A stretch of DNA of 39,031 nt from a virus, in the UHGV virus genome UHGV-0112814, one strand, 5' to 3'. Below are positions 22,155 to 38,981 of this stretch, one piece after another. The notes under the pieces were generated by a model that was not told the DNA's origin, ran no database searches, and was given only the letters and a program-made list of their open reading frames with translations. Every line of letters starts with the position of its first letter. Within the stretch, counting starts at the first letter, position 1. A program made the translations under genes and the position numbers.

Positions 22155-22778
22155 CTAACGTGTGACCGCATTCAAAATGTTGTCTGCGATTGACTCTTCT
22201 TTGTGGCATTGCACCACCAGAGCGTCATACAGAGGCTTAACAGTGCGTGACCAGGTGGGTTGGGTAAGGTTTGGGATTAGCATCGTCACAGCGCGATATG
22301 CGGCGCTTGCTGGCATTCTTGAATAGCCGACACCTTTGCATCTTCCGCACTCTTTCTCAACAACTCTCCCCCACTGCTCCGTTTTGGCTATATCAACCGC
22401 ACGGCCTGTACCGTGGCAATCTCTGCATCTTGCCCCCGGCGTCGCGGCACTACGGCAATAATCCGCATAAGCGAATGTTGCGAGCACTTGCAGTACCTTT
22501 GCCTTAGTATTTCCTTCGAGCTTTGCCACACCACGGTATTTCCCCGATACCTTGTGTGCAAATTGCATCAGATAGTTGATAGCCTTTTGTTTGTCGTTCT
22601 GGCTGAGTTCATGCTTACCGCAGAATGCAGCCATTCCGAATCCAGCTTGTGATTGCGCCATCCCCATAGCAGCCATCACATCAGTACCGGAAAGAGAGTC
22701 AGAAGCCGTGGCCCGTGGTGAGTCGCTCATCATCGGGCTTTTTGGCGAATGAAATTTAGCTACACTTTCGAGTCTCAT
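22155..22778 (-). CDS. Q: Late antiterminator Q (lambda Q type)
   Basis: MRLESVAKFHSPKSPMMSDSPRATASDSLSG ... matches lambda Q over its length; start at M12 of the track ORF. Confidence 0.9.
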   Translation of the reverse strand: MRLESVAKFHSPKSPMMSDSPRATASDSLSGTDVMAAMGMAQSQAGFGMAAFCGKHELSQNDKQKAINYLMQFAHKVSGKYRGVAKLEGNTKAKVLQVLATFAYADYCRSAATPGARCRDCHGTGRAVDIAKTEQWGRVVEKECGRCKGVGYSRMPASAAYRAVTMLIPNLTQPTWSRTVKPLYDALVVQCHKEESIADNILNAVTR

Positions 22779-25682: not shown

Positions 25683-27563
25683 TTAATACTCCGTCACGTT
25701 TTCCTGTCGCCACGCCTCGTCATATTCCGATTTCGGCATATTGGCGATGTAGCTATAAGGCGATCCTGATTCAAGTTGCAGGAACTGGTGCGATTGCTCG
25801 TCAAGGAACAACGGGACACCACCTTCCCAACCTTCGCCGTTACGTTGTTTTTCAAGCATCAAAACAGATGCCGGAGATGCCAGTAGCTGTTCGTCCTTCT
25901 CTGACATCTTTTCACCACTCTGAACTCTCTGTAACGCTCTCTCGCGAGCCTTGTTACGCCAGATGATAAAAAGGTTGTCTGTCAGGTCTGTTATCGCTCC
26001 AGAGCCTTTTACGTCCATTTTCCCGGTTGGTTTTTCTTCGCTATCTCCTTTTCTGGAGTGAGTAACGAGAATGACGTGGGAGTTTGTTTTGTTTTTGAAG
26101 TCACAAATCGAGTCAACAAATGCTTTCTGCCCGTTATAGTCATCGTCACCTATGCCGCATTTCATCAGGCTGTCGATGATGAATAACTGGATGCCGTATC
26201 GGCGGCGAGCGTAGTCGAATATTTCGATCAGCCTGTCGGCTTTCGCCGTTCCAGTCAGGCCAAACACCCAAAATCTTTCGTCATAAAATTTAAATGCAGA
26301 GTCAATTTCCAGCACTGGCGGCATCTTGCAGCACGTCGCCTGACGGGTAAGGCGCTTAAGGAGAATACCAGGCTTCAGCTCAAGTGACGCGATGCACGTC
26401 TTCACACCCTGACGCATTGCCTCAAGTGCCATATGCCCGACAACCTCCGTTTTTCCGTGACCGTTCACACCATTGACCAGCGTCAACTCGGCCTCACGGA
26501 ACTGGAATTTATCTGCCAGAGATTCCCACGGTGGATTAAACAGATACTGCTGCTTGCCGTAGAAAGCGTTGATAGTGTCCTGGTAAAACTCTCGCGCGCT
26601 GTAGAGTTCTTCAGGATCGAAGTAGGATGCCGTGCCGATGTACTGCCAGATTTCATCCTCGGTAACACCGTTCATCAGGCATTCGTTGATGTCTTTGTAC
26701 GGCAGAGTAACAAGACGGCAACGATGTTCACCGAGTCGGCTTGCGATTTCCCTTGCGGCTTCACGACCAACATCATCAACGTCCATCGAGATGAATATTT
26801 CCTCAAACCTGTCGAGGTTGTGATACTCAAACTCAATCCACTGTTGCTTAGCGCCTTTCCCGCCACCAAACGGCACGGATAACGCCGAGATGCCGTATTG
26901 CGCATAGCTCATACAATCAATTTCGCCTTCGCAAAGTACAACCGCCCTCACGCCAGCGTCCAGAGCCTGCCATCCAAACAGACAAGGTTCGCAATCACCT
27001 TCTGCCATAATGACTTTCTTCCCGTCCGGTCGCTCAGTGCTGATTCGCTTGACCTGCAACAACTCACCATCGCGTTTGTACGGAAGCACCAGTGCATCAA
27101 GTTCTCGTTCTCCATTCCACACCTTGCCGCTGACAACCTCGTAGCGCTTTACGACTTCTGGCGATATGCCACGCGATTGCAGGTACTCAAGATGGGATTC
27201 TGTTCTGGTAACGTAGCGGGCGATTTTCTTGCGGTCAGGTCTGGAGAATTTCTTCTCACGTTTGGCATCGAAATGGTGATCGTCATCCTTGATTCCGAGA
27301 AAGGCTTTCGCTTCCTGCATAGCCTGATGCAGGTTAATTCCACGACATGCCATCCACAAATCAAGCATGTCACCGCCGTCTCCCTCAGCGAAATCAGCCC
27401 ATTTTTTCTTGCCGCTAAGGTTGACCTTAAGGCTGTTTCCCTTGTCACCGTTGACGTTACCGGCAACCCACTCATGCCCCTCTTTCTTGCCGTTTGGCAA
27501 CAGGTGCGGAGCCACCCTGTCAACCTGCGCCCAAAGCAGGTCACTGAGTTCACTTGGAGTCAT
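25683..27563 (-). CDS. Bifunctional primase (TOPRIM)/DnaB-like helicase replication protein
   Basis: 626 aa; TOPRIM-like VVLCEGEIDCMSYAQYG segment and Walker A-like VNGVNGHGKTEV segment. Confidence 0.8.
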   Translation of the reverse strand: MTPSELSDLLWAQVDRVAPHLLPNGKKEGHEWVAGNVNGDKGNSLKVNLSGKKKWADFAEGDGGDMLDLWMACRGINLHQAMQEAKAFLGIKDDDHHFDAKREKKFSRPDRKKIARYVTRTESHLEYLQSRGISPEVVKRYEVVSGKVWNGERELDALVLPYKRDGELLQVKRISTERPDGKKVIMAEGDCEPCLFGWQALDAGVRAVVLCEGEIDCMSYAQYGISALSVPFGGGKGAKQQWIEFEYHNLDRFEEIFISMDVDDVGREAAREIASRLGEHRCRLVTLPYKDINECLMNGVTEDEIWQYIGTASYFDPEELYSAREFYQDTINAFYGKQQYLFNPPWESLADKFQFREAELTLVNGVNGHGKTEVVGHMALEAMRQGVKTCIASLELKPGILLKRLTRQATCCKMPPVLEIDSAFKFYDERFWVFGLTGTAKADRLIEIFDYARRRYGIQLFIIDSLMKCGIGDDDYNGQKAFVDSICDFKNKTNSHVILVTHSRKGDSEEKPTGKMDVKGSGAITDLTDNLFIIWRNKARERALQRVQSGEKMSEKDEQLLASPASVLMLEKQRNGEGWEGGVPLFLDEQSHQFLQLESGSPYSYIANMPKSEYDEAWRQENVTEY

Positions 27564-27667
27564 GATTCCCTCAGATTGAGATTTTTAAACCAGAAATCGA
27601 CAAACGAAATACTTAACCAGCCGTGGTTATAACCAGCGACCAGTAGCGATTTGATTTTTGATTTCAT
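27560..27667 (-). CDS. Small ORF (35 aa) translationally coupled between the O-like gene and the primase-helicase gene
   Basis: Own translation MKSKIKSLLVAGYNHGWLSISFVDFWFKNLNLRES; its ATG lies 3 nt after the O-like stop and its stop overlaps the primase ATG. Confidence 0.3.
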   Translation of the reverse strand: MKSKIKSLLVAGYNHGWLSISFVDFWFKNLNLRES

Positions 27668-27670
27668 GGT

Positions 27671-28531
27671 TCACCTGTCGAAAAACACGTAGCCAGTTTT
27701 CGATACGGTGATTGCGGATGATGGTTTGGATTGTGGTTGAATAGTTTCTGGCTTCTCGTCGTTCCAGCGCTGACCGTTCAGGTAGCTCGATGGTAACAAC
27801 CTGTCGAATCCGAACTGCTTACCATTCCTGCATGCGATGTCTTCTGCCAGCATCGTGGCAAACTCGCTTGCCGTACCCCTGGTAGTTTTACGCCATTCCC
27901 TGAACTGTGTTCTGAATGCCGAAGCTGCGTTTTTCTTCCCGGCTTTCCGCATGCCTGCACACCAGAATATTTCCTCGAATGCCTTGTCGGTTTCTTCGTG
28001 ACGGTCAGGTGATTTTTCACACTCCGTCCGAACACTTTCGGACATAGTGTTTTTATTATTTCTTTTTTCTTTTGTAATAGTTTCTTTTGTGTGTCCCTGT
28101 TTTGGTGACAGCGCTGTCACCGTTTTGGTGACACTTTTTGTCACCAATGCAGTGACATTATCACCAGAGTAGTGACACCCTTCGATTTGCCATTCTTCGA
28201 TGTTCTTGTTAGGCCCGATTTGCTGGCCTTCGCGAAGGATAACCTTCATCGCGATAAGCTCATTCTTGGCCTTGTTTACCTTCTGTCTTGGCAGCCTGGT
28301 AATTTGAGCTAACTGACTATCAGAAATGCGATCCATCTTTTTACCGTAGCCGTATGTTTTACGGCATATGGCGTGGGCAACCTTGCTCTGATTTTTCGTT
28401 AAATCTGCGCCGATAAGCTCTTCATACAGGGCATTTGCAAGACGGGTATAACCATCTTCAACTTCTGCCACACGACGCTCCACAGGCCGTTGTGAAGGCC
28501 TTAAATGTGTTACGGTTGCAAGATTACTCAT
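27671..28531 (-). CDS. Replication initiator with lambda O-like N-terminal domain
   Basis: N-terminal [37 protein letters not shown] resembles the phage O N-terminal domain; ori iterons lie inside the gene. Confidence 0.75.
28100..28180. repeat. Candidate replication origin iterons (GTGACA/TGTCAC core repeated about 6 times in both orientations) next to an AT-rich stretch at 28050..28095
   Basis: tttggtgacag / ctgtcaccg / ttttggtgacac / tttttgtcacc / agtgacatt / agtgacaccc inside the O-like gene, as lambda ori lies inside O. Confidence 0.55.
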
Positions 28532-28679
28532 GACCTTTCTCCTTCTGCATCAGCTTCACTTTTTCCAACTCAGCCCGGAATCGACCAGGCTGCTTGAAGC
28601 TGGACAGGAAGCGATCACGTAGTATGTGTTTGTGAATTTTGTCTGGTAAGGACTGAGTTGTTTTGTCATAATGACTCCT

Positions 28680-28757
28680 GTTGATAGATCCAGTAATGAC
28701 CTCAGAATTCCATCTGGATTTGTTCAGAACGCTCGGTTGCCGCCGGGCGTTTTTTAT
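28680..28757 (+). ncRNA. oop: oop antisense RNA (lambda-like), overlapping the 3' end of cII
   Basis: gttgatagatccagtaatgacctcagaa(t)tccatctggatttgttcagaacgctcggttgccgccgggcgttttttatt is near-identical to lambda oop, including its terminator. Confidence 0.75.
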
Positions 28758-28995
28758 TGGTGAGAATCGAAGCAACTTGTCGTGCCAATCGAGCCATGTC
28801 GTCGTCAACGACCCCCCATTCAAGAACAGCAAGCAGCATTGAGAACTTTGGAATCCAATCCCTCTTCCACCTGCTGATCTGCGACTTATCAACTCCCACA
28901 GCTTCCGCTGTCTTCTCAGTTCCAAGCATTGCGATTTTGTTAAGCAACGCACTCTCGATTCGTAGAGCCTCGTTGCGTTTGTTTGCACGAACCAT
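28702..28995 (-). CDS. cII: CII transcriptional activator (lambda CII)
   Basis: [62 protein letters not shown] ... is essentially lambda CII. Confidence 0.95.
28973..28986 (+). promoter_or_regulatory. pRE -35 region with CII-binding TTGC-N6-TTGC direct repeat
   Basis: ttgcgtttgtttgc inside the 5' end of cII, oriented toward cI as in lambda. Confidence 0.6.
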
Positions 28996-29074
28996 ATGTA
29001 AGTATTTCCTTAGATAACAATTGATTGAATGTATGCAAATAAATGCATACACCATAGGTGTGGTTTAATTTGAT

Positions 29075-29106
29075 GCCCTTTTTCAGGGCTGGAATGTGTA
29101 AGAGCG
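29075..29106 (-). promoter_or_regulatory. nutR (boxA cgctctta at 29099..29106; boxB gccctgaaaaagggc at 29075..29089), followed by tR1-like sequence
   Basis: Minus strand reads cgctcttacacattccagccctgaaaaagggcatcaaattaaacc..., matching lambda nutR. Confidence 0.85.
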
Positions 29107-29114
29107 TTGATAAC

Positions 29115-29345
29115 TTAAGCAGCCATTAATTCAGGCCAGATGCTTTCCCAATCAACCGGATGAAGGTCTTTGCGAGTCACTTCACCATTGCTGAACTTCT
29201 CAATCAGAACACAAAGTGCTGCGCCCAATTCATGATTACGGCTAAGTGCTTTCCTCAAATAGCCGATAGAAGTTCCGCACTTGGTGGCAAATTCTCTCTG
29301 CTCTTCCAGTGAAAGGGAGTTCAGATACAAGCGGAGTTCTTCCAT
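29115..29345 (-). CDS. cro: Cro-like repressor (non-lambda specificity)
   Basis: 76-aa ORF divergent from cI across the operator region, RBS aaggag; HTH-like segment TKCGTSIGYLRKAL. Confidence 0.7.
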   Translation of the reverse strand: MEELRLYLNSLSLEEQREFATKCGTSIGYLRKALSRNHELGAALCVLIEKFSNGEVTRKDLHPVDWESIWPELMAA

Positions 29346-29377
29346 TTGCTATCTCCTTCCCGTTGTTGAATAAGGTG

Positions 29378-29406
29378 AGTTTACCTGCAGGTAAAAAACA
29401 AATCAA
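29378..29406 (-). promoter_or_regulatory. Putative pR promoter (-35 ttgatt, -10 taaact) overlapping operators
   Basis: Minus strand: ttgatt-17 nt-taaact upstream of the cro RBS. Confidence 0.5.
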
Positions 29407-29433
29407 TACCCACAGGTTATTTACCGATAGGTA
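29382..29433. promoter_or_regulatory. oR: three operator sites (29382..29393 perfect TACCTGCAGGTA; 29407..29418 and 29422..29433 variants)
   Basis: 12-bp palindrome and two degenerate copies in the cro-cI intergenic region. Confidence 0.6.
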
Positions 29434-29453
29434 ATCAAAGATAGAATTAAATC

Positions 29454-30140
29454 ATGGATAAATACGAACAAAGACGACTAAGGCTGATAGAGATAAGAGA
29501 CCGATTCTGTAATGGAAAGGCCTCAGAGTTGGCTCGTCGAATAGAAAGGGAACCATCATACGTTTCCAGAATGCTGTATCCGGAAGGAAAAAGCGGAAAA
29601 AAACGCATTGCTGACGATATGATGGAACTAATTGAAAAATCTTTTAATCTCCCACGCGGATGGATGGACATGCTTGCAGATAGCAAAGTTGGATCTGCAG
29701 ACCATCTTGAGTTTGCGGGTAACGTTCGTGCGGGTTTTGTTCCGGTAATTGGTGAAGCCGTTTTGGGAGTTGATGGCTCAGTGGATATGATTGAATTCAG
29801 ATCCGGTTGGTTAAGCATCTACAGTGGCGATAAAGATGCTTACGGTCTGAAGGTTAAGGGTGACAGCATGTGGCCAAGGATTCAGTCAGGAGAATATGTT
29901 GTTATTGAACCAAATACGCCAGTACATCCAGGTGATGAAGTCTTTGTAAGGACCAAAGATGGTCATAACATGATAAAGATCATGAACAAAACAAGAGACG
30001 GAGACTATCAGTTTAGTAGTATAAACAGCGATCACCGTCCAATCACTCTTCCTGTTGAAGAAGTTGATAAAATGCATTTTGTTTCAGCTATTGTGAAACA
30101 CACTAGGTACGTAGACCAGGACGATCTGCCAAAATTTTGA
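29454..30140 (+). CDS. cI: CI-type prophage repressor with C-terminal S24 (LexA-like) autopeptidase domain
   Basis: 228 aa; C-terminal GDSMWPRI ... GDEVFVR ... IKI is a LexA/S24 Ser-Lys dyad pattern; divergent from cro. Confidence 0.9.
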   Translation: MDKYEQRRLRLIEIRDRFCNGKASELARRIEREPSYVSRMLYPEGKSGKKRIADDMMELIEKSFNLPRGWMDMLADSKVGSADHLEFAGNVRAGFVPVIGEAVLGVDGSVDMIEFRSGWLSIYSGDKDAYGLKVKGDSMWPRIQSGEYVVIEPNTPVHPGDEVFVRTKDGHNMIKIMNKTRDGDYQFSSINSDHRPITLPVEEVDKMHFVSAIVKHTRYVDQDDLPKF

Positions 30141-30451
30141 GGATAAAGCAGCAAATGTTTATACCAGGTATAGTGGTCGCTGTTGTAATCATCTGCTTCA
30201 TATGGGCAAAGTTATCTCCTGTAAGCTCTAAGCATACAGCTGAACTCATGAAGAAGAAGCATCTTATACATGAGGCAGAAACGATAATTAAGAAGTTCAA
30301 AGGCATGTCATATGACGACATGTCATCAGATCAGATTGCTATGTATAAATGCGCCATTGAGCGTCTTGACCACTTAAACGGACTCAAACCCAAACACACC
30401 CCGGTAGAATCAAAATTGCCGCAATGGCCAAGCAATCCAAATAGCTTCTGA
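30137..30451 (+). CDS. Small membrane-anchored protein co-transcribed with cI (candidate lysogen-expressed exclusion function)
   Basis: 104 aa; N-terminal TM helix MFIPGIVVAVVIICFIWA; start overlaps the cI stop; followed by a strong terminator. Confidence 0.6.
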   Translation: MRIKQQMFIPGIVVAVVIICFIWAKLSPVSSKHTAELMKKKHLIHEAETIIKKFKGMSYDDMSSDQIAMYKCAIERLDHLNGLKPKHTPVESKLPQWPSNPNSF

Positions 30452-30462
30452 CATCTCCTTTC

Positions 30463-30486
30463 AGCCCGCAAAGCGGGCTTTTTTAT
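30463..30486 (+). terminator. Intrinsic terminator ending the cI operon
   Basis: agcccgc-aaa-gcgggct perfect stem followed by ttttttata. Confidence 0.75.
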
Positions 30487-30548
30487 ATCAATCCAAAAAA
30501 TTAATTACCTGAAAATTCAAACAGGTAAACTCTCACACCAATTTTATT

Positions 30549-30585
30549 TACCTGCAGGTATAGACAACAGTTTTACCTGCAGGTA
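30549..30585. promoter_or_regulatory. oL: two perfect TACCTGCAGGTA operators (30549..30560, 30574..30585) overlapping pL
   Basis: Same 12-bp palindrome as in oR, centre-to-centre spacing 25 bp. Confidence 0.6.
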
Positions 30586-30589
30586 TATT
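30561..30589 (+). promoter_or_regulatory. pL promoter (-35 tagaca, -10 tatatt), predicted +1 near 30597
   Basis: 17-bp spacing; downstream leader atcagcaggacgcac... matches the lambda pL transcript start. Confidence 0.55.
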
Positions 30590-30630
30590 TTAAGCCATCA
30601 GCAGGACGCACTAACCACCATGAAGGTGAT

Positions 30631-30858: not shown

Positions 30859-31185
30859 ATGGATGCACAAACACGCCGCCGCGAACGTCGCGCAGAGAAA
30901 CAGGCTCAATGGAAAGCAGCAAATCCCCTGTTGGTTGGGGTAAGCGCAAAACCAGTTAACCGCCCTATTCTCTCGCTGAATCGCAAACCGAAATCACGAG
31001 TAGAAAGCGCACTGAATCCGATAGACCTTACGGTGCTGGCTGAATACCACGAACAGATTGAAAGCAACCTGCAACGTATTGAGCGCAAGAATCAGCGCAC
31101 ATGGTACAGCAAGCCACGCAGTGAAATGGGTGTGACTTGTGTTGGTCGCCATAAAACGAAGGGCAAATCCATCGCATTAATCTGA
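30859..31185 (+). CDS. N: Antiterminator N (lambda N)
   Basis: MDAQTRRRERRAEKQAQWKAANPLLVGVSAKPVNRPILSLNRKPKSRVESALNPIDLTVLAEYH ... is lambda N, including the Arg-rich boxB-binding motif. Confidence 0.95.
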   Translation: MDAQTRRRERRAEKQAQWKAANPLLVGVSAKPVNRPILSLNRKPKSRVESALNPIDLTVLAEYHEQIESNLQRIERKNQRTWYSKPRSEMGVTCVGRHKTKGKSIALI

Positions 31186-33280: not shown

Positions 33281-33375
33281 GCACTGTGTATTCATTCCAA
33301 CGAGTGAATACACGGAGCAATGTCGCTCGTAACTAAACAGGAGCCGACTTGTTCTGATTATTGGAAATCTTCTTT

Positions 33376-33401
33376 GCCCTCCAGTGTGAGGGCCTTTTTA
33401 T
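33376..33401 (+). terminator. Intrinsic terminator in the early-left operon, upstream of the cIII-like gene
   Basis: gccctc-cagtgt-gagggc perfect stem followed by ctttttatat. Confidence 0.55.
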
Positions 33402-33465
33402 ATGCATACCAATAACGCTTCACTCGAGGCGTTTTCGTTATGCAATCAAACAGAAGGAGCATCCT

Positions 33466-33636
33466 ATGCAACAGTTCGCTATTGCAGGGGCGGCATCGGT
33501 TCGCCCTTTCAACCCGATTTTATCGGTGCAGCATTCACGAAAAAATATTTTAACCGGAGCAGACTTTAAACAACCTCGCGTTAAGAGCTTGCTGGATCGT
33601 CTTGTTGAGTTTCTGAATCAAAAGGTACAGCCATGA
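33466..33636 (+). CDS. cIII: CIII-like small protein (possible FtsH inhibitor)
   Basis: 56 aa, MQQFAIAGAA ... KSLLDRLVEFLNQ loosely resembles lambda CIII; RBS aaggag. Confidence 0.45.
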   Translation: MQQFAIAGAASVRPFNPILSVQHSRKNILTGADFKQPRVKSLLDRLVEFLNQKVQP

Positions 33637-33797
33637 AAAAACCAACTTACGAGGAACTGGAAGAAGCCCTGAAAGAGCTTAGAAGAATAGCTTTCGCCAG
33701 ACGCACTAACTCTCACAACTGCGGCCCATTTCAGTACTCGGATTTATGCGAGGACATCATTGAGGTAACTCAACTGATTAAGGTCGTTAAGCAATGA
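33633..33797 (+). CDS. Small hypothetical protein (54 aa)
   Basis: Own translation MKKPTYEELEEALKELRRIAFARRTNSHNCGPFQYSDLCEDIIEVTQLIKVVKQ; start overlaps the cIII-like stop. Confidence 0.35.
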   Translation: MKKPTYEELEEALKELRRIAFARRTNSHNCGPFQYSDLCEDIIEVTQLIKVVKQ

Positions 33798-37708: not shown

Positions 37709-38455
37709 ATGAGCACTATTACCAAAGAATTAACCAAAGAGCAGTTACAGCAAATTATCGAAACTGACCACGTTCAATGCGGTGAGGCTTCGGCGCTGGC
37801 GCGTATCGCGCTGGCATCGCTCGAAGCGGAGCCTGTGGCGTGGGCGCACAGATTAATCAACAAGCGTAACGGAGTCGTTCACCCTTGGGTTTACGGTAGC
37901 GCAGAGGCGTGTCCAAGCGAGGGGGATATCTTCAATATTGAGGTAATGCCGCTCTACACCGCCCCGCCAGCGCCGGTATCTGTGCCCGCTACGATGGAAA
38001 TTGATGATGACTTTGACAGCGCGTTTGAACACGGAAAAGCTGTCGGCTGGAACGCCTATCGCGCCGCCATGCTTCAGGCCGAACCTGTAAGTAATAGTGA
38101 TGAGTTACCGCTGGACTATCTGCAAGGTCACAAAGACGGCCTTGAATGGGCTGCACAATTGGCAGAAGCCAATCATCCGCAAACAGGTGACTGGTTGTAC
38201 GACGACCAAATCGATCTTGCCAGGGCGATTCGCAAAGGTCCGGATATGCCTACTGTTCAGGGTGGCAACTCTCCGGTGATTCCAGATGGTTGGGTGATGG
38301 TGCCGGTTGAGCCTACGATAGCCATTCTAGACGAATTCGATTCGATTATTGATTACGGCGCTGAGGATTCTAAGGATGCGTGGAGTCGTCTTCTGGCAGC
38401 CGCTTGGATTAAATCGCTGCCAGCAGCGCCGCGGCAGGAGGTTAACCGTGGCTAA
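37709..38455 (+). CDS. Hypothetical protein
   Basis: 248-aa ORF, acidic, Pro/Ala-rich linker. Confidence 0.55.
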   Translation: MSTITKELTKEQLQQIIETDHVQCGEASALARIALASLEAEPVAWAHRLINKRNGVVHPWVYGSAEACPSEGDIFNIEVMPLYTAPPAPVSVPATMEIDDDFDSAFEHGKAVGWNAYRAAMLQAEPVSNSDELPLDYLQGHKDGLEWAAQLAEANHPQTGDWLYDDQIDLARAIRKGPDMPTVQGGNSPVIPDGWVMVPVEPTIAILDEFDSIIDYGAEDSKDAWSRLLAAAWIKSLPAAPRQEVNRG

Positions 38456-38555
38456 CCTGCAACTTGCCGTCAAAGGTGAATAACAATCCTCGCACTCGCG
38501 GGGATTTCTTTTATCTGAACTCGCTACGGCGAGTTTTGCTTTATGGAGATGATAA

Positions 38556-38723
38556 ATGCACTTCCGAGTCACAGGTGAATGGAATGGAGAACCATTCAAC
38601 AGAGTTATCGAAGCAGAGGACATCAACGACTGCTATGACCACTGGATGATATGGGCGCAGATAGCACATGCAGACGTAACCAATATTCGAATTGAAGAAC
38701 TGAAAGAACACCAAGCCGCCTGA
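38556..38723 (+). CDS. Small hypothetical protein (55 aa) ending inside a terminator hairpin
   Basis: Own translation MHFRVTGEWNGEPFNRVIEAEDINDCYDHWMIWAQIAHADVTNIRIEELKEHQAA. Confidence 0.3.
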   Translation: MHFRVTGEWNGEPFNRVIEAEDINDCYDHWMIWAQIAHADVTNIRIEELKEHQAA

Positions 38724-38737
38724 TGGCGGTTTTTTAT
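38714..38737 (+). terminator. Intrinsic terminator upstream of xis
   Basis: agccgcc-tgat-ggcggtt stem (one G.U pair) followed by ttttttatt. Confidence 0.55.
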
Positions 38738-38780
38738 TGCCTGATTTGCAGGTTCGATTCCCTATTCGGAGATAGCACTC

Positions 38781-38981
38781 ATGCAACACGAACTACAACC
38801 TGATTCACTGGTTGATTTGAAATTCATCATGGCTGATACTGGCTTCGGTAAGACCTTCATCTATGACCGGATTAAGTCCGGCGACCTGCCTAAAGCCAAA
38901 GTTATCCACGGACGAGCAAGATGGTTATATCGTGACCATTGTGAATTCAAAAATAAGCTCTTAAGCCGCGCCAATGGGTAA
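38781..38981 (+). CDS. xis: AlpA-family excisionase / DNA-binding protein
   Basis: 66 aa; TGFGKTFIYDRIKSGDLPKAKVIHGRARWLYRD fits the AlpA/Xis HTH pattern; last gene before the int end of the element. Confidence 0.6.
   Translation: MQHELQPDSLVDLKFIMADTGFGKTFIYDRIKSGDLPKAKVIHGRARWLYRDHCEFKNKLLSRANG

Follow-up and report, generated by a model that had tools for sequence, protein, structure and literature searches.

The stretch of DNA analysed here (the window) comprises 39,031 nt of the virus genome UHGV-0112814, and it carries at 28662..29106 a lambda-type cII gene together with the control elements that surround it. Elsewhere, the window is similar to P22-like podoviruses, among them HK620, CUS-3, Sf101, and 720R6. 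The lambda map runs from right to left in the window, with the lambda rightward strand corresponding to the window minus strand, and coordinates are converted by the relation window = 67355 - lambda. The following features are found at this locus:

28556..28669, minus strand: remnant of orf48/DUF2740, 37 aa, frameshifted by a 1-bp deletion and holding the P22-type upstream half of pO
28662..29106, no strand assigned: lambda-allele cassette, containing the pO -10, oop, cII, pRE, and tR1/nutR, to boxA
28664..28672, plus strand: extended -10 of pO (TGTCATAAT), identical to lambda and the complement of the orf48 start-codon context
28677..28692, plus strand: CTG-N10-CAG, LexA-box-like, spanning the oop start; direct reading, identical to lambda
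28680..28756, plus strand: predicted oop antisense RNA, 77 nt, identical to lambda 38675..38599 at 76 of 77 positions without a gap
28702..28995, minus strand: cII, 97 aa, Pfam Phage_CII with E = 1.7e-48, identical to lambda at 96 of 97 residues
28726..28756, plus strand: tO intrinsic terminator from the terminator scan, with a 12-bp stem at 28726..28753, a 4-nt loop, and U6A
28973..28986, plus strand: CII-binding repeats TTGC-GTTTGT-TTGC (TTGCGTTTGTTTGC) of pRE, identical to lambda 38382..38369
29000..29005, plus strand: pRE -10 AAGTAT, identical to lambda, 13 nt downstream of the second TTGC
29012, plus strand: equivalent of the pRE start site, which we take to be 38343 in lambda
29074..29090, minus strand: nutR boxB (nutR is 38265..38281 in the lambda annotation)
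29099..29106, minus strand: nutR boxA (TAAGAGCG complement), the left boundary of the cassette

Global alignment and blastn of the whole lambda genome showed that 28662..29106 corresponds to lambda 38693..38249, with 440 of 445 positions identical, five substitutions, and no gaps. One substitution changes CII (A76S), and the other four are synonymous. Lambda identity ends at 29106, just beyond the end of cro, and on the other side at 28662, 18 nt upstream of the oop start. It comes back in the blastn comparison at 30596, which is the pL start and nutL, and continues into the N gene. The right-hand joint falls within a 33-bp island (28662..28694) that is common to lambda, P22, BTP1, HK97, and Stx phages and contains the pO -10, the oop start, and the CTG-N10-CAG sequence. 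The window has the lambda base at each of four diagnostic positions in this island, and other loci show different crossover points inside it. The same block is present in 192 phage records. At least 19 complete E. coli genomes share the arrangement, and 80 IMG/VR loci encode the same CII (99-100% identical).

A laboratory lambda hybrid or a contamination was also considered as the source of this DNA. It was rejected in view of the five substitutions in the block, the natural P22/mEp043-type flanks, and the similar arrangements in the 80 metagenomic or prophage loci and in at least 19 E. coli genomes.

The cII gene starts with an ATG at 28995..28993 on the minus strand, and the direct CII repeats of pRE, which flank the -35 position, are located in its codons 4-8. 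The initial annotation had reported a TTGC-N6-TTGC motif in the 5' end of cII, and the motif is indeed there, as in lambda. The pRE -10 and start site fall just outside 28680-28995. Bare TTGC-N6-TTGC is not enriched in the window (seven occurrences against 3.6 expected, with 10 of 100 shuffles reaching seven); therefore, the case for pRE is made by homology, not by the statistics of the motif. What marks the CII motif as real is its position inside a lambda-identical block, at the lambda spacing to AAGTAT. The cognate CII activator is encoded in the same genome. The promoter points toward the plus-strand repressor gene, which begins 442 nt downstream of the pRE start, and it is antisense to the minus-strand cro-like gene. 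A terminator scan of the plus strand over 29012..29454 found no terminator-like site except one inside the lambda-identical part.

The 5' end of lambda oop has been placed at 38,675 (PMC5869508), which by coordinate conversion puts the start of oop in the window at 28680. The sole mismatch to lambda, a C-to-T change at 28708, is placed in a loop of the predicted fold, and the cII codon that it affects changes synonymously (GAG to GAA). The predicted RNA is antisense to the 3' end of cII, with an overlap of 55 nt that includes the stop codon, plus 22 nt of spacer. It folds with -28.5 kcal/mol (z = -4.4) into the same structure as lambda oop. It had been proposed that oop and its terminator are recognizable antisense to the cII 3' end, and the alignment to lambda bears this out, since the identity of oop is not low but nearly complete. 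The tO helix is 90.8% paired over 10 lambdoid alleles, and two of its pairs are changed on both sides, inside the cII coding sequence. Conservation of this helix, over ten related sequences only, supports oop without proving it. The predicted stem I at the 5' end of oop is not conserved between alleles (68.7% paired in the 10 lambdoid phages), and therefore no structural claim is made for stem I. A search of the whole window against Rfam at gathering thresholds gave no matches, and permissive scans of 28500..29200 and 33300..33700 gave sub-threshold chance matches only. Rfam holds no oop family, and its lambda cIII thermometer model did not match the leader region of the CIII-like gene described below even at E <= 10; thus, Rfam neither confirms nor refutes these elements. 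Expression of oop from this phage is likely. Through its pairing with the 3' end of cII, oop RNA stimulates decay that depends on RNase III (PMC5869508, PMC12197685). In work on SOS induction, oop contributed little or nothing to the removal of CII (PMC2327240), which suggests that the physiological weight of oop is modest even in lambda, where it is debated.

Downstream of pRE, the DNA changes to another immunity type. Over 29107..30595, the window shares 96.9% identity with the phage mEp043 immunity region, and this part contains the following features:

29115..29345, minus strand: cro-like gene, 76 aa, mEp043 type, to which the pRE transcript would be antisense
29381..29434, no strand assigned: three OR operators of the form TTACCnnnnGGTAA, non-lambda
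29454..30140, plus strand: repressor, 228 aa, Peptidase_S24, mEp043 type, into which the pRE transcript would read

The TTACCnnnnGGTAA operators number three at OR and two at OL. The operator pattern has 23 matches in all against 10.4 expected, and the five best are all at OR and OL. A different immunity type had been recognized by the initial annotation, and the non-lambda repressor, cro, and operators agree with this; the identity to mEp043 now gives the type a name. A candidate pRM (TTTACC-16 nt-TAGAAT, 29420..29454, plus strand) has its end 7 nt upstream of the start codon of the repressor (ATG at 29454), and the maintenance transcript would thus be leaderless, as for lambda cI. Directly after the repressor, in the position of lambda rex, lies a 104-aa ORF (30137..30451, plus strand) of PHROG 10450, a family of unknown function. 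This ORF is followed by a strong hairpin and a T-run at 30462..30486.

On the other side of the cassette, a P22/mEp043-type orf48-O-primase/helicase module takes the place of lambda O/P. Its replication genes (25683..28531, minus strand) encode an O-like protein, a 35-aa ORF, and a 626-aa primase/helicase. The O-like protein has the Phage_rep_O N-terminal domain only, the 35-aa ORF belongs to PHROG 21848, and the 626-aa protein has Toprim and DnaB-like domains. The end of orf48 normally overlaps the start of the O-like gene. In the window, a deletion near 28645 (TGTCCTGG to TGTCTGG) shortens orf48 to 37 aa instead of the normal 48. The gene is intact in all 19 IMG/VR loci that carry it, as well as in 720R6 and mEp043. 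The frameshift may come from a sequencing error, or orf48 may truly be a pseudogene here.

Three further parts of the CII circuit are located away from the cassette:

22478..22510, plus strand: paQ (TTGCGAGCACTTGC, 13 nt, TAGTAT), identical to lambda from 44186 and antisense inside the Q gene
33466..33636, plus strand: divergent CIII-family gene, 56 aa, PHROG 550 with E = 5.9e-19
38737..38749, plus strand: pI-like TTGC-N5-TTGC, in the same place as the lambda pI box and upstream of an AlpA/TorI-type xis

The Q gene that contains paQ is 96.8% identical to lambda Q. The pI-like site has N5 spacing against the canonical N6 and a poor -10 (TATTCG). It follows a terminator shared with lambda, the AlpA/TorI-type xis is at 38781..38981, and int lies beyond the end of the window. 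In the HK620 record AF335538, the same 13 nt are annotated as a 'cII protein' binding site and integration promoter. The sequence at 38737..38749 is a candidate CII site, not a canonical pI. The CIII-like gene is located in the pL operon downstream of N (30859..31185), and its leader shares 79-83% identity with that of lambda/Stx cIII. Over 33360..33636 (plus strand), the lambda/Stx-like leader and the first codons (MQQFAIAG) are kept and the remainder is divergent. No Pfam or NCBIfam match to this ORF was found at E <= 0.01, and BLASTP against lambda CIII aligned two short segments only. Judged by its family assignment, 33466..33636 is probably a divergent CIII allele with a putative CIII function (FtsH inhibitor). 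The earlier suggestion that the full lambda lysis-lysogeny circuit is retained holds for CII, oop, and paQ and needs to be qualified for the rest: CIII is divergent and recognized through PHROG 550 only, the pI-like site has N5 spacing, and only the -10 of pO is lambda-type. Because paQ is intact, the circuit is also more complete than the initial annotation had claimed.

Comparison with known phages shows where each part belongs. Lambda has the same sequence, order, and orientation across 38249..38693, including oop, the terminator, the CII boxes, the pRE -10, nutR, and CII. Lambda differs in having its O gene upstream of oop -18, with the pO -35 and the 45-94 nt region, where the window has a P22-type orf48 flank. 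It also has its own cro, cI, and operators downstream of pRE, whereas those of the window are of the mEp043 type. The oop RNAs of P22 and BTP1 have the body and terminator of the c1 allele, with about 50% identity past the first 15 nt, and are shorter; the body in the window is that of lambda. Phage mEp043 (NC_019706) is colinear with the window, with 99.2-99.4% identity in the O-like gene and orf48 and 96-97.5% in cro, cI, the operators, and pL. However, its orf48 is intact, and it carries a P22/ST64T-type c1 (93 aa) with its own TTGC-N6-TTGC in place of the lambda cII cassette. In a segmentwise comparison, identity between the window and mEp043 is 50-71% across 28695..29106, because mEp043 has the P22/ST64T-type c1 there. 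By this comparison, the early region of the window is mEp043-like except for the cII cassette, the only part of lambda type. The laboratory hybrids lambda imm434 and lambda imm21 are like the window in that lambda cII, pRE, and oop serve a heterologous repressor, and their immunity substitution is likewise bounded by the pL start and the end of cro. In contrast to the window, which is a natural P22-like genome, these hybrids keep lambda O/P and lambda virion genes.

The analysis shows the identity to lambda, the geometry of the parts, the fold of the terminator, a cognate CII protein, and an immunity region that is heterologous; from these we infer transcription from pO and pRE and the regulatory effects of both, as follows. 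The pR transcript on the minus strand would pass nutR/tR1 and express CII. CII would then bind the TTGC repeats and activate pRE, and the pRE transcript, starting near 29012 on the plus strand, would cross the heterologous cro in antisense orientation and reach the repressor gene, which is heterologous as well. CII would also activate paQ and possibly the variant pI. The convergent promoter pO would make the 77-nt oop RNA, which is complementary over its whole length to the final 55 nt of cII and the 22-nt spacer and would lower CII via RNase III-dependent decay of cII mRNA. When lambda CII is provided in trans, cI434 expression from pE is activated on lambda imm434 cII- phages that infect the cell (PMC5869508), which indicates that the lambda CII/pE cassette can serve a foreign immunity region.

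Because lambda homology stops 18 nt upstream of oop, only the -10 of pO is lambda-type. The -10 is CATAAT (28667..28672) with a TG extension at 28664-5, and it sits 8-13 nt upstream of the oop 5' end, as described for lambda (PMC5869508). The lambda -35 (TTGAGT) and the O-gene region at 45-94 nt are absent from the alignment, and P22/mEp043-type orf48 sequence is present instead. These lambda sequences are treated as a property of the lambda pO allele, not needed for membership of the oop family. The upstream flank of pO is 88-90% identical to P22 and BTP1. The P22 oop RNA has been sequenced and is 63 nt long, with its start 3 nt from the lambda-equivalent position (PMC13397905), and OOP RNA has been seen in BTP1 transcriptomics (PMC7067206); the supplements of the BTP1 paper give no OOP coordinates. 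In the P22-pbi record, a promoter and a terminator are annotated at the place of pO/oop. A LexA site has been cited in oop-pO (PMC5869508), and it may be the CTG-N10-CAG at 28677..28692. In the 80 IMG/VR loci, about seven different genes occur downstream of near-identical cII, via three sequence-independent classes of junction. In every class, a -10 (TGTCATAAT, GCATATAAT, or TGCCATAAT) arises at the same spot as the complement of the sequence around the downstream start codon. Among lambda start codons, 5 of 71 have such an antisense -10, which gives the base rate.

The retention of this -10 before every type of downstream gene could also be read in another way, in which the main job of pO would be transcriptional interference with the rightward pR transcript into the replication genes (the 'dual promoter' model), not cII antisense. 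In lambda plasmids, it is the activity of pO, and not oop RNA, that modulates replication and how much pR transcription gets past pO (PMC3985674). However, this model derives from ori-lambda with its O and P proteins, and the replication module here differs. We regard interference as an unlikely main function of pO, and it is not mutually exclusive with an antisense role.

A less probable explanation, and one that we doubt strongly, is that oop is a passenger. In this view, its sequence is kept because cII coding sequence makes up 55 of the 77 nt and the ribosome-binding region of the following gene makes up the remainder, and the hybrid pO is too weak for RNA to be made in useful amounts. Lambda pO45, with 45 nt upstream, is almost inactive, and pO94, with 94 nt reaching into O, is required (PMC5869508); the 45-94 nt region is missing here. 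The -35 is poor as well, since direct reading gives TGGTAA at the -35 spacing, which matches TTGACA at three of six positions. In addition, the -10 of pO could simply be the complement of ATTATG at the downstream start codon, and stem I varies freely between alleles. Against these points, P22 and BTP1 make detectable oop RNA with the same type of upstream flank, and the -10 of pO has its TG extension. An antisense -10 recurs in the three junction classes before about seven downstream genes, against the base rate of 5 of 71, and the terminator hairpin is kept by two-sided changes inside coding sequence. Finally, that the TTGC-N6-TTGC motif and the hairpin are chance matches and not homologues of pRE and oop has next to no probability: the bare motif is not enriched, but both elements lie at the exact lambda positions within a 445-bp block that is 98.9% identical to lambda, and the alignment has already refuted this explanation.

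In the preferred reading, the lysogeny-establishment cassette is present here as its lambda allele. It is very probably a 445-bp mosaic block in a P22-like (Lederbergvirus-type) genome, with a working that is probably lambda-like. The elements themselves are textbook parts of lambda, newly combined in a mosaic, and this is already known, ordinary mosaic phage biology. A more tentative idea, which we hold to be possible at best, is that cII-oop-pRE-nutR is a self-contained exchangeable cassette bounded by regulatory islands, namely boxA (29099..29106) and the 33-bp island (28662..28694), with the -10 of pO kept by selection. If this were true, pO would serve a function where the lysogeny and replication modules meet, whatever the module. 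The practical gain of the analysis is the right labels for oop, pRE, and paQ, which were missed by automatic annotation and Rfam, and its significance beyond annotation is small. The locus offers a clean natural case in which a regulatory cassette of 445 bp has been exchanged, and both joints fall in control sequences that are short and conserved. In this case, a P22-like genome would use the CII, pRE, paQ, and oop of lambda to drive a heterologous repressor of the mEp043 type when it establishes lysogeny.
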